From Escherichia coli (GTDB lineage Bacteria; Pseudomonadota; Gammaproteobacteria; Enterobacterales; Enterobacteriaceae), in NCBI RefSeq assembly GCF_003334385.1, contig NZ_QOWN01000015.1: a stretch of DNA of 64,000 nt; one strand, given 5' to 3'. Both the position numbers and the translations under genes were made by a program. Every line of letters begins with the position of its first letter. Within the stretch, counting starts at the first letter, position 1. Below are positions 48,177 through 52,166 of this stretch, piece after piece. The notes under the pieces were generated by a model. It made no database searches, was not told where the DNA came from, and worked only from the letters and a program-made list of their open reading frames with translations.

Positions 48177-51100
48177 TTGAGCCAGGAATACACTGAAGAC
48201 AAAGAAGTCACATTGACAAAGTTAAGTAGCGGCCGCCGCCTTCTGGAGGCGTTGCTGATCCTTATTGTCCTGTTTGCCGTCTGGTTGATGGCTGCCTTAC
48301 TAAGCTTTAACCCTTCGGACCCCAGCTGGTCGCAAACGGCCTGGCATGAACCTATCCATAATTTAGGTGGGATGCCCGGTGCGTGGTTGGCAGATACGCT
48401 GTTCTTTATTTTTGGCGTGATGGCTTACACCATTCCCGTCATTATTGTCGGCGGTTGTTGGTTTGCCTGGCGTCATCAGTCCAGCGACGAATACATTGAT
48501 TATTTTGCCGTTTCGCTACGCATCATTGGCGTTTTGGCGCTCATCCTTACCTCCTGTGGTCTGGCGGCAATCAACGCTGACGATATCTGGTATTTTGCCT
48601 CCGGTGGCGTCATTGGCAGCTTACTAAGCACTACGCTACAACCACTGCTACACAGTAGCGGGGGAACTATTGCGCTGCTCTGCGTTTGGGCAGCGGGCCT
48701 GACGTTGTTCACCGGTTGGTCATGGGTGACCATTGCTGAAAAACTCGGCGGCTGGATTTTAAACATTCTCACCTTCGCCAGTAATCGTACCCGTCGCGAT
48801 GATACCTGGGTCGATGAAGATGAGTATGAAGACGACGAAGAGTATGAAGATGAAAATCACGGCAAACAGCATGAATCACGCCGTGCCCGTATTCTTCGCG
48901 GCGCGCTAGCGCGTCGTAAACGGTTGGCGGAAAAATTCATTAATCCGATGGGGCGGCAAACAGACGCTGCGTTGTTCTCCGGTAAGCGGATGGATGATGA
49001 CGAAGAGATTACCTACACTGCACGCGGTGTGGCTGCCGACCCGGACGACGTCCTATTTTCGGGCAATCGTGCAACGCAGCCAGAATATGACGAATACGAT
49101 CCATTATTAAACGGTGCGCCAATTACCGAACCTGTCGCTGTAGCAGCTGCTGCTACCACGGCGACACAAAGCTGGGCTGCGCCGGTTGAACCTGTGACTC
49201 AGACGCCGCCTGTTGCCTCTGTTGATGTTCCACCTGCGCAACCTACAGTAGCCTGGCAGCCTGTACCGGGTCCACAAACGGGAGAGCCGGTTATTGCTCC
49301 TGCACCGGAAGGTTACCCACAGCAGTCACAATATGCGCAGCCTGCAGTGCAATATAATGAGCCGCTGCAACAACCAGTACAGCCGCAGCAGCCGTATTAT
49401 GCACCTGCAGCTGAACAACCTGCGCAACAGCCGTATTATGCCCCTGCGCCAGAACAACCGGTGGCAGGTAACGCCTGGCAAGCCGAAGAGCAGCAATCCA
49501 CTTTTGCTCCACAGTCTACATACCAGACTGAGCAAACTTATCAGCAGCCAGCCGCTCAGGAGCCGTTGTACCAACAGCCGCAACCCGTTGAACAGCAGCC
49601 TGTTGTGGAGCCTGAACCCGTTGTAGAAGAGACAAAACCCGCGCGTCCGCCGCTTTACTACTTTGAAGAAGTTGAAGAGAAGCGAGCCCGTGAACGTGAA
49701 CAACTTGCGGCCTGGTATCAACCGATTCCAGAACCGGTTAAAGAACCAGAACCGATCAAATCTTCGCTGAAAGCACCTTCTGTTGCAGCAGTACCTCCAG
49801 TAGAAGCCGCTGCCGCTGTTTCCCCGCTGGCATCTGGCGTGAAAAAAGCGACACTGGCGACGGGGGCTGCCGCAACCGTTGCCGCGCCAGTCTTCAGTCT
49901 GGCAAATAGCGGTGGACCGCGTCCTCAGGTCAAAGAGGGGATTGGTCCGCAGTTGCCACGACCGAAACGTATCCGCGTGCCAACTCGTCGTGAACTGGCG
50001 TCTTACGGTATTAAGCTGCCCTCACAGCGTGCGGCGGAAGAAAAAGCCCGTGAAGCCCAGCGCAATCAGTACGATTCTGGCGATCAGTACAACGATGATG
50101 AAATCGATGCGATGCAGCAGGATGAACTGGCACGTCAGTTCGCCCAGACACAGCAGCAACGCTATGGCGAACAGTATCAACATGATGTGCCCGTAAACGC
50201 AGAAGATGCAGATGCTGCGGCAGAGGCTGAACTGGCTCGTCAGTTTGCGCAAACTCAACAACAACGTTATTCCGGCGAACAACCGGCTGGGGCGAATCCG
50301 TTCTCGCTGGATGATTTTGAATTTTCGCCAATGAAAGCGTTGCTGGATGATGGTCTACACGAACCGTTGTTTACGCCAATTGTTGAACCTGTACAGCAGC
50401 CGCAACAACCGGTTGCACCGCAGCAGCAATATCAGCAGCCGCAACAACCAGTTCCGCCGCAGCCGCAGTATCAGCAGCCACAACAGCCGGTTGCGCCGCA
50501 GCCACAATATCAGCAGCCGCAACAACCGGTTGCGCCACAGCAGCAATATCAGCAGCCGCAACAACCGGTTGCGCCGCAGCAGCAGTATCAGCAGCCACAA
50601 CAGCCAGTTGCGCCACAACCGCAGGATACCCTGCTTCATCCGCTGTTGATGCGTAATGGCGACAGCCGTCCGTTGCATAAACCGACGACGCCGCTGCCTT
50701 CTCTGGATTTGCTGACACCGCCGCCGAGCGAAGTGGAGCCGGTAGATACCTTTGCGCTTGAACAAATGGCTCGCCTGGTGGAAGCGCGTCTGGCTGATTT
50801 CCGTATTAAAGCCGATGTCGTCAATTACTCTCCGGGGCCGGTTATCACTCGCTTTGAATTGAACCTGGCACCGGGCGTAAAAGCGGCGCGCATTTCTAAC
50901 TTGTCACGGGACCTTGCCCGTTCACTTTCGACGGTGGCGGTGCGTGTCGTTGAAGTTATTCCTGGCAAACCCTATGTAGGTCTGGAGTTACCGAATAAAA
51001 AACGACAAACCGTTTATCTGCGCGAAGTTTTGGATAACGCCAAATTCCGCGATAATCCGTCGCCATTAACCGTGGTGCTGGGTAAAGATATCGCCGGTGA

Positions 51101-52166
51101 GCCGGTGGTTGCCGATCTGGCGAAAATGCCGCACTTGTTGGTTGCGGGGACTACCGGTTCCGGTAAATCTGTCGGTGTGAACGCGATGATCCTGAGCATG
51201 CTTTATAAAGCACAGCCAGAAGATGTGCGTTTCATCATGATCGACCCGAAAATGCTGGAGCTTTCGGTTTATGAAGGCATTCCGCATCTGTTAACGGAAG
51301 TCGTTACTGATATGAAAGATGCCGCCAACGCGCTGCGCTGGTGTGTTAACGAGATGGAGCGTCGGTATAAACTGATGTCTGCGCTGGGTGTGCGTAATCT
51401 GGCGGGTTATAACGAAAAAATTGCTGAAGCCGATCGCATGATGCGTCCGATTCCAGACCCGTACTGGAAGCCGGGTGACAGTATGGATGCCCAGCATCCG
51501 GTGCTGAAAAAAGAACCATACATTGTGGTGTTGGTTGACGAATTTGCCGACCTGATGATGACGGTAGGTAAAAAAGTGGAAGAGCTGATAGCACGTCTGG
51601 CGCAAAAAGCCCGTGCCGCGGGTATCCACCTCGTACTGGCAACTCAGCGTCCATCGGTTGATGTTATTACTGGTCTGATTAAAGCGAATATTCCGACCCG
51701 TATCGCCTTTACCGTATCCAGTAAGATTGACTCACGTACCATTCTTGATCAGGCTGGCGCGGAATCACTGCTGGGTATGGGGGATATGCTCTACTCTGGG
51801 CCGAACTCCACGTTGCCGGTACGTGTCCATGGTGCTTTTGTTCGCGATCAGGAAGTTCATGCCGTGGTGCAGGACTGGAAAGCGCGTGGTCGCCCACAGT
51901 ATGTTGATGGCATCACCTCCGACAGCGAAAGCGAAGGTGGTGCGGGTGGTTTCGATGGCGCTGAAGAACTGGATCCGTTGTTCGATCAGGCGGTGCAGTT
52001 TGTCACTGAAAAACGCAAAGCGTCAATTTCTGGCGTACAGCGTCAGTTCCGCATTGGTTATAACCGTGCAGCGCGTATTATCGAACAGATGGAAGCGCAG
52101 GGGATTGTCAGCGAACAGGGGCACAACGGTAATCGTGAAGTGCTGGCCCCACCGCCGTTTGACTAA
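48177..52166 (+). CDS. ftsK: DNA translocase FtsK (N-terminal membrane domain, Pro/Gln-rich linker, C-terminal motor plus gamma domain), 1329 aa, TTG start
   Basis: [33 protein letters not shown]...; Walker A GTTGSGKS; start codon at 48177 is TTG. Confidence 0.95.
50394..50627 (+). repeat. Six tandem 39-bp (13-codon) repeats encoding [17 protein letters not shown] units in the FtsK linker
   Basis: Units begin at 50394, 50433, 50472, 50511, 50550 and 50589 with few substitutions. Confidence 0.9.

Follow-up and report, generated by a model that had tools for sequence, protein, structure and literature searches.

The six tandem 39-nt units at positions 50394-50627 of the window, the whole 64,000-nt stretch of Escherichia coli DNA that was analyzed, are an already catalogued MLVA locus in ftsK, CVN001, also designated ms07, and the repeat is not new. 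The array very probably represents a coding minisatellite (VNTR) that specifies a length-tolerant Pro/Gln-rich tether, with copy-number variants that are near-neutral and units that turn over by misalignment. Strain typing of E. coli, Shigella, and Salmonella has made routine use of this polymorphic ftsK repeat since the 2000s. The initial observation and, in essence, its interpretation hold, but they are unremarkable and carry little scientific weight.

A Six-Unit Array Adjoins the FtsK Motor

The host gene was identified from the list of open reading frames together with NCBIfam and Pfam profiles. The ftsK coding sequence (48177-52166, plus strand) has a TTG start and encodes 1329 aa followed by a stop. 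Residues 1-1329 aligned to positions 1-1355 of the NCBIfam equivalog NF007615, 'DNA translocase FtsK', scoring 3045.1 bits (cutoff, 1566), and the RefSeq annotation at the collinear K-12 position is likewise ftsK. A Pfam search with residues 131-1329 returned, in order, FtsK_4TM (PF13491), FtsK_alpha (PF17854, aa 840-940), FtsK_SpoIIIE (PF01580, aa 948-1161), and FtsK_gamma (PF09397, aa 1264-1324), which is the FtsK domain order of N-terminal 4TM anchor, long linker, alpha, P-loop FtsK/SpoIIIE motor, and gamma. The initial annotation had described the gene as essential. This is true of the N-terminal ∼200 residues alone: cells survive both the deletion of residues 211-1329 and a linker insertion (PMC2680272).

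The repeat, hereafter array B (50394-50627, plus strand), encodes FtsK residues 740-817. Six tandem 39-bp repeats in the FtsK linker had been proposed from the sequence, and direct reading, a parse of each unit in turn, and Tandem Repeats Finder (50394-50614, period 39, 5.7 copies, 88% matches, score 344) all agreed on them. The six units are in frame with ftsK and are identical to the consensus at 38, 35, 35, 38, 38, and 31 of 39 positions, whereas the flanking 39-mers match it at only 7 and 13. The DNA similarity of the units exceeds both chance and what the peptide repeat alone imposes. At a lag of 39 nt, no other segment of the 64-kb window reached the self-identity of the array (170/195; window mean 51.2, sd 9.2; z = 12.9). 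Mean pairwise nucleotide identity between units was 0.872, against 0.783 ± 0.015 when synonymous codons were redrawn from ftsK's own usage, and none of 2000 resamplings attained the observed value. A three-unit, 117-nt higher-order period was also reported by Tandem Repeats Finder (94% matches), and units 1/4, 2/5, and 3/6 share 37, 36, and 33 of 39 positions, whereas neighboring units share 34 on average. This periodicity is weak and was absent from other alleles, and it was not retained.

The encoded stretch is 50% Gln and 28% Pro, and each unit contributes one Tyr. Its last residue, 817, precedes the Pfam FtsK_alpha domain by 22 residues. Residues 1-512 of chain A in PDB entry 2IUS, the crystallized motor construct, align to FtsK 818-1329, and residue 818 directly follows the array; the C-terminal motor (alpha, beta, and gamma; 50628-52163, plus strand; residues 818-1329) thus starts at the codon after it. 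The length of the motor was constant at 512 aa in 12 of the 12 full-length ftsK alleles parsed. The solved structures (2IUS, 2IUT, and 2J5P) cover FtsK residues 798-1329 and none spans array B.

Spurious open reading frames on other frames and on the opposite strand had been anticipated, and three were found. One lies on the plus strand in an alternative frame (50347-50649, 100 aa, with SSRNNRL... repeats) and two lie on the minus strand (50355-50765, 136 aa, with LLRLLILLL... repeats; 50371-50718, 115 aa, also repetitive). They are by-products of array B and not genes, arising because five of the six frames across the array are free of stops. In practice, short-read assemblies break or collapse at the locus, and databases acquire from it such shadow ORFs and incomplete entries labeled 'FtsK, partial' or 'hypothetical'.

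The Array Is the Typing Locus CVN001/ms07, and ftsK Carries a Second Array

The published CVN001 primers (PMC11773471) match the window exactly and uniquely, at 50279-50299 (forward, plus strand) and 50695-50716 (reverse, minus strand). The reverse site overlaps that of ms07, whose primers also match exactly (50134-50153, plus strand; 50701-50720, minus strand). CVN001, from the generic E. coli MLVA scheme (Lindstedt et al., 2007), and ms07, from the Shigella/E. coli MLVA panel, are therefore the same locus as array B: in both, primers bracket a 39-bp unit in ftsK with polymorphic copy number. They differ only by counting convention. The in-silico CVN001 product of the window is 445 bp, which is integral allele 5 by the published (PS-250)/39 rule, whereas direct counting and ms07 sizing give 6. 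The published CVN001 alleles, with frequencies of 1% (allele 4), 40% (5), 40% (6), 13% (7), and 5% (8), accordingly correspond to 5-9 units counted directly (PMC5217547).

A second 39-nt coding tandem repeat, array A, lies at 49386-49460 on the plus strand (residues 404-428) and is the MLVA locus ms06. It has two units here (Tandem Repeats Finder: 49384-49459, period 39, 1.9 copies) and three or four in other strains, and an alignment of 10 ftsK alleles showed 13- or 26-aa indels at the site. With binding sites at 49276-49295 and 49557-49576, the ms06 primers predict a product of 301 bp, which is the lower end of the published sizes. Array A resembles array B in having a 13-codon unit within the PQ-rich linker of ftsK, a preserved frame, and polymorphism (2-4 units). 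In contrast, its unit peptide is a different one, its copies are fewer, and it lies ∼310 residues upstream, in mid-linker and not adjacent to the motor. The initial annotation had neither recognized the named VNTR marker nor flagged this second polymorphic array.

Copy Number Varies among E. coli Strains and the Frame Is Kept

Linker length had been expected to vary between strains, and array B was compared across alleles in 40 rank-spread rows of a similarity ranking drawn from 5,426 complete E. coli genomes, a sample and not a census. Array B had 4 units in one row, 5 in one, 6 in 15, 7 in 20 (three of these rows being assigned from identical alignment statistics), and 8 in one; the remaining two carried 6 units plus a 15-nt partial unit. 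The expectation was thus confirmed, with 4, 5, 6, 7, or 8 units and mostly 6 or 7, and it is this variation that makes the locus useful in strain typing. The reading frame was kept in all 18 array B alleles read, including the one with the 15-nt partial unit, and the in-silico CVN001 products among alleles were 367, 445, 460, and 484 bp. Two different FtsK alleles of 1329 aa combine array A and array B units as 2+6 and 3+5, respectively. Since ftsK has two independent variable arrays, FtsK protein length alone is no guide to copy number.

The array had also been called slippage-prone. This description is relative: the array is identical across independent genomes of the K-12 lineage and stable enough to serve as a marker in outbreak typing (PMC2430564). 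Moreover, hybrid units, described below, indicate register-shifted recombination or conversion besides simple slippage.

Array Units Undergo Concerted Evolution, Probably under Purifying Selection

The 14 alleles compared contained 33 different unit sequences, arranged in 9 unit maps. Hybrid units were present; unit g, for example, joins the 5′ part of c to the 3′ part of b. Diversity was 0.060-0.066 in array B, compared with 0.007-0.015 elsewhere in ftsK. Unit identity was 0.87 within E. coli and 0.93 within Salmonella, against 0.84 between the species (permutation, 6/5000), and one synonymous difference between the two, GTT versus GTA, is fixed across all units. The units therefore undergo concerted evolution, which together with the hybrid units points to slippage or unequal recombination.

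The pN/pS ratio was 0.079 for array B, similar to the 0.03-0.08 of the remaining linker, and 0.02-0.03 for the folded domains. Part of the raised pS of the array (0.27) may come from comparing units that are not orthologous and not from real diversity at sites. Because the E. coli and Salmonella consensus is shared and pN/pS is about 0.08, the unit peptide must be under some constraint beyond 'any flexible chain', a point against the tether reading given below.

Relatives were compared at the protein level through a search with the array segment, which gave fragments of at most 456 aa and no full-length cross-genus FtsK; the cross-genus fragments came from Salmonella, Klebsiella, Cronobacter, and Edwardsiella. 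The flanks EPLFTP ... D(S/T)L(I/L)HPLLMR together with a unit of the E. coli type were found in the Salmonella fragments and at locus L016. For this locus and L017, both in frameshift-ridden assemblies in which ftsK and lolA are split, the array DNA alone was used. In the fragments from other Enterobacterales, the slot between these flanks holds 17-107 residues. It is periodic in E. coli, in Salmonella, and in one further assembly, which has a related unit peptide, QQPAQPVAPQQHY; that of Klebsiella is PQ-rich without a clear period.

A Length-Tolerant Tether and Its Alternatives

Published accounts portray the FtsK linker as an unstructured, PQ-rich segment whose length varies (PMC5357621; PMC5345879; PMC3870252). 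An AlphaFold2 model of FtsK residues 700-960, built on an alignment of 16 sequences, showed no secondary structure in the array but is too unreliable to serve as evidence of disorder (mean pLDDT 42; the alpha domain, although known to be folded, was also below 55). The encoded stretch would form the final part of a long flexible tether from the motor hexamer to the septal membrane anchor. The 39 nt of a unit make up 13 codons, so that each unit gained or lost leaves the frame intact and lengthens or shortens the Pro/Gln-rich stretch by 13 residues. We infer that units misalign, through replication slippage or through unequal recombination or conversion, which would produce both the homogenization within lineages and the hybrid units. 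Copy-number variants would persist as near-neutral polymorphisms because a range of tether lengths is tolerated, while the amino-acid composition of the array would be under ordinary purifying selection. In the accessible literature we found no isogenic copy-number series assayed for FtsK functions. The sole allele swap found scored an unrelated phenotype: an 84-bp indel in the ftsK repeat was exchanged between two Salmonella strains, and survival in egg white, the one phenotype tested, was unchanged (PMC6137255).

The 13-residue unit could instead be a functional multivalent motif, either a docking site for divisome partners or a Tyr 'sticker' with Pro-Gln 'spacer' for self-association of the motor, in which copy number tunes valency. 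This is unlikely, although several observations are in its favor. E. coli and Salmonella share one consensus peptide, to which that of the third assembly is related; pN/pS is about 0.08; and the array directly adjoins the motor. Tyr is the last residue of every complete non-terminal unit, whereas Asp closes the terminal one in all alleles. Moreover, parts of the linker reportedly contact FtsQ, FtsL, FtsI, and FtsZ, according to the review PMC5357621, which cites Dubarry (2010). However, the fragments from Klebsiella, Cronobacter, and Edwardsiella contain no periodic unit at this position, with a best period identity of at most 0.46 or a slot of just 23 residues, and the specific motif is therefore dispensable in these close relatives. 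Natural alleles with 4-8 units occur side by side, and the published sizes span the equivalent of 1-12 units; the pN/pS of the array is no lower than that of the non-repetitive linker; and the motor functions in vitro without the linker (PMC5345879). More doubtful still is the narrower proposal that the Gln/Pro unit, with its single invariant Tyr, its conservation between E. coli and Salmonella, and its place immediately before the motor, mediates multivalent self-association or partner docking, so that the number of copies would set how easily FtsK motors come together at the septum. If it were true, the MLVA alleles would be functional variants and not neutral length variants.

Far less probable is that the count of six is an artefact of assembly, whether by collapse or by expansion. 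Many database FtsK fragments do stop at or within the array on contigs of 0.5-2 kb, where short-read assemblies break, and one fragment (P0027) has a single unit that could be a collapse. The copy number is, however, not the product of a collapse: strain G1/2 and K-12 HMS174 both have the six-unit array base for base. At least nine complete genomes of K-12-like strains, independent of one another, contain an 801-nt stretch including the array at full length, with a single mismatch that lies outside the array, and the in-silico CVN001 product corresponds to an integral allele. A private C>T change at 50356 is also read in the window. Least credible of all is that the array acts as a contingency (phase-variation) switch or conceals an overlapping gene in another frame. 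Intragenic tandem repeats are a classic substrate of phase variation, and long ORFs occur in two other frames on each strand. With a 13-codon unit, however, the frame is kept in all 18 alleles read, that with the 15-nt partial unit among them, and a change in copy number therefore cannot switch expression. The alternative-frame ORFs are limited to the repeat and a few flanking codons, their translations are of low complexity, and RefSeq records annotate ftsK alone under the match. The length-tolerant tether is the reading that we prefer.

Comparison with Known Repeat Loci

Among the closest known systems is the 39-bp repeat in ftsK of Salmonella enterica, for which STTR7 and SENTR2 are two names in the Salmonella MLVA literature; one study of Typhimurium isolates (PMC8627665) also belongs to the literature on the ftsK repeat. 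This locus is the orthologue of array B, with the same position, the same flanks, and the same 13-aa consensus. It is likewise polymorphic, with 7.5-9.3 copies and in-frame indels of 84 bp and 195 bp. The Salmonella array has more copies than that of E. coli, and its units use synonymous codons peculiar to the species, with GTA for Val and CAG at codons 5 and 12, which indicates that each lineage homogenized its array independently.

A likeness of kind is offered by the coding VNTRs of TolA, CVN004 in E. coli and SENTR1 in Salmonella, which are typed in the same MLVA panels. These are in-frame repeats of 15 bp and 45 bp, respectively, and they lie in the elongated tether of a periplasm-spanning envelope protein. 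The analogy with the ftsK array is of kind only, and the two share no sequence relationship.

Array structure and position in FtsK

The flagged feature, array B, was read as six head-to-tail 39-nt units at 50394-50627(+). Tandem Repeats Finder reported 50394-50614, with a period of 39, 5.7 copies, 88% matches and a score of 344. The lag-39 self-match over the array (170/195 positions, z = 12.9) was the highest lag-39 signal in the 64-kb window, and the initial annotation of six 39-bp repeats at these coordinates was correct. Units matched their consensus at 31-38 of 39 positions, against only 7/39 and 13/39 for the adjoining 39-mers, and 12 of the 18 departures from consensus were synonymous. 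The units are read in frame as part of a 1329-aa ORF, 48177..52166(+), in which they encode residues 740-817. Gln makes up 50% of this segment and Pro 28%, and each unit has a single Tyr. Unit DNA identity was 0.872, compared with 0.783 ± 0.015 when synonymous codons were redrawn, a level that 0/2000 resamplings attained. Because this identity exceeds what the peptides require, the array DNA was copied or homogenised recently.

The ORF was identified as FtsK by NCBIfam NF007615 (3045 bits, cutoff 1566), and its surroundings are as in K-12, with lrp upstream and lolA, rarA and serS downstream. Pfam found FtsK_4TM, FtsK_alpha (residues 840-940), FtsK_SpoIIIE (948-1161) and FtsK_gamma (1264-1324). 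The FtsK linker, of about 650 aa, is described as unstructured, Pro/Gln-rich, variable in length between species and only partly understood in function (PMC3870252, PMC5345879, PMC5357621, PMC2680272). The E. coli motor construct of crystal structure 2IUS covers residues 818-1329 exactly when aligned, so array B is the final element of the linker. This boundary and the NF007615 score bear out the placement of the repeats in the FtsK linker. An AlphaFold2 model of residues 700-960 gave array B no secondary structure, but the whole model is unreliable (mean pLDDT 42) and was given no weight.

A second 39-nt tandem repeat, array A, lies in the same linker at 49386-49460(+). The NF007615 model has 1355 positions, exactly 26 more than the window's FtsK (48177-52163), which would fit seed sequences that have two additional 13-residue units summed over both arrays. 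The distal linker also contains two copies of a 14-residue motif, at 50124-50165 and 50229-50270 (residues 650-663 and 685-698), 21 residues apart with an acidic stretch between them. Unlike the PQ arrays, this motif is recognisably conserved in Salmonella and Klebsiella fragments and more loosely in Edwardsiella, which suggests that it may be a functional element.

Array B is free of stops in five of the six reading frames, which accounts for three listed shadow ORFs, 50347..50649(+), 50355..50765(-) and 50371..50718(-). Long spurious ORFs in other frames and on the opposite strand had been anticipated; RefSeq annotates nothing over the array besides ftsK.

Copy number and assembly

An 801-nt query spanning array B matched all 5,426 complete E. 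coli genomes, of which only 3,881 gave a single-piece alignment covering at least 80% of it. Alleles were taken from 40 rows evenly spaced down the similarity ranking of these genomes. Array B had four units in one row (H10407), five in one (23CRST044), six in 15 (the window and K-12 among them), six plus a 15-nt partial unit in two (EcPF5), seven in 20 (three assigned by alignment statistics identical to those of verified neighbours) and eight in one (EcPNK004). The expected variation of linker length between strains was thus found, at 4-8 units within this sample. The reading frame was kept in all sampled alleles, and the portion C-terminal to the array was 512 aa in every full-length allele. 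Array A is polymorphic too, with two units in the window and three or four among other E. coli genomes. Neither copy number can be read from the length of FtsK alone, as both arrays vary; two distinct 1329-aa alleles carry 2+6 and 3+5 units (array A + array B).

The gene had been called essential. The host gene is indeed ftsK, but strains without residues 211-1329, or with a linker insertion, are viable, with more filamentation (about 34% versus about 16% for a gamma deletion) (PMC2680272). A frameshift in array B would therefore cost the motor, not viability, and whole-unit changes cause no frameshift because the unit is 13 codons.

Assembly collapse at array B is realistic in general, since many database FtsK fragments stop there on 0.5-2 kb contigs, one (P0027) with a single unit. 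The six units in the window are not such a collapse, the array being identical in K-12 HMS174 and strain G1/2. Among the protein-search fragments (P0001-P0114), many entries named 'FtsK, partial' or 'hypothetical protein' are truncated or hop between frames, with their start, end or frame change at the array, and P0107 is translated partly in shadow frames. Some calls come from complete genomes with ftsK and lolA split by frameshifts (loci L016 and L017), probably uncorrected long-read errors.

The first 55.7 kb of the window shows 15 single-position differences from K-12 HMS174, none within array B. One of them, 50356 C>T (FtsK P727L), is located 38 nt upstream of array B. C was found there in both close relatives directly compared, K-12 HMS174 and G1/2, and no complete E. 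coli genome matched the 801-nt query with its T perfectly (best 99.9%). The change 48193 T>C (FtsK I6T) is common to the window and G1/2. Collinearity with K-12 stops just past serS, at about 55718. From there to 64000 the window carries the tail and late module of a P2-like prophage (tape measure, sheath, tube, late control D, ogr, Hok/Gef) in the place occupied by dmsABC in K-12, so the source strain is K-12-like and not K-12 itself. At least 80% of this stretch was found in only 16/5,426 complete genomes (best G1/2, G6/7 and G8, 99.9%).

Turnover and selection

Among 14 alleles, 33 distinct unit sequences and nine unit maps were found, with hybrid units such as g, in which the 5′ portion of c is fused to the 3′ portion of b. 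Pairwise diversity was 0.060-0.066 in array B and 0.007-0.015 in the remaining ftsK. Seven-unit alleles gave a pS of 0.27 and a pN of 0.022 in the array, both about 6- to 20-fold above the remaining gene; the raised pS probably owes in part to comparing units no longer orthologous. The pN/pS ratio of the array (0.079) resembles that of the non-repetitive linker (0.03-0.08) and is only slightly above that of the folded domains (0.02-0.03). Unit DNA identity was 0.87 and 0.93 within species versus 0.84 between E. coli and Salmonella (6/5000 permutations). At one Val position the units have become fixed for different synonymous codons, GTT in E. coli (the window) and GTA in Salmonella (ATA in one unit). 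The within-species likeness and the fixed codon are the hallmark of concerted evolution through repeated misalignment, the events presumably being replication slippage or unequal recombination. Array B is not hypermutable over short time scales; it is identical in K-12 HMS174, G1/2 and the window, and MLVA (strain-typing) types are reported to stay stable through outbreaks (PMC2430564).

Other genera were compared at the slot between the conserved FtsK flanks EPLFTP and D(S/T)L(I/L)HPLLMR. In Salmonella fragments this position is occupied by the same 13-aa unit. The slot has 17-95 residues in E. coli-like fragments (period 13 if more than one unit), 107 in the Salmonella-like P0004 (period 13, 0.88 identity), 50 in S. 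enterica subsp. arizonae (period 13), 58 in P0018 (QQPAQPVAPQQHY units), 70-77 in Klebsiella (PQ-rich, no clear period) and 23 in Edwardsiella (no clear period). Since slot length and periodicity vary across these fragments, a variable-length PQ-rich spacer is the general state among the enterobacterial FtsK fragments compared, and the 13-aa tandem form is particular to the Escherichia/Salmonella group.

Interpretation as a variable linker repeat array was supported overall, and array B is best explained as a coding minisatellite. Misalignment between units would turn the array over, gain or loss of units would lengthen or shorten a flexible Pro/Gln-rich tether beside the FtsK motor in 13-residue steps, and a range of tether lengths would be tolerated. 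The main rival holds that the 13-residue unit is a multivalent functional motif, as its conserved peptide and invariant Tyr might indicate. However, the unit is missing from Klebsiella and Edwardsiella, and selection on array B, judged by pN/pS, is no stronger than on the remaining linker.

Relation to known typing loci

Array B is already known as the MLVA locus CVN001/ms07, with the orthologue STTR7/SENTR2. An E. coli MLVA primer paper assigns one pair to 'CNV001 (ftsK)', its spelling of CVN001 (PMC11773471). Both primers match exactly, at 50279-50299(+) and 50695-50716(-), giving a 438-bp amplicon with the array inside. The original primers give a 445-bp in-silico product, allele 5 by the published rule (PS-250)/39, which is one unit lower than the direct count. 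CVN001 ranks among the most variable loci of its scheme, and Swedish ESBL isolates carried alleles 4 (1%), 5 (40%), 6 (40%), 7 (13%) and 8 (5%) (PMC5217547); the two dominant alleles correspond to the six- and seven-unit alleles dominating our 40 rows. Primers for ms07 (Shigella/E. coli panel, 39 bp) lie at 50134-50153 and 50701-50720, with published sizes of 392-821 bp, or 1-12 units. Those for ms06 (39 bp; 49276-49295 and 49557-49576) bracket array A, which is this locus, with published alleles 2, 3 and 4 (301-379 bp). In Salmonella, swapping an 84-bp ftsK indel between two strains left egg-white survival unchanged (PMC6137255). The orthologous Salmonella array, STTR7 = SENTR2, likewise lies in ftsK with a 39-bp unit and has 9.3 copies in S. 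Enteritidis.
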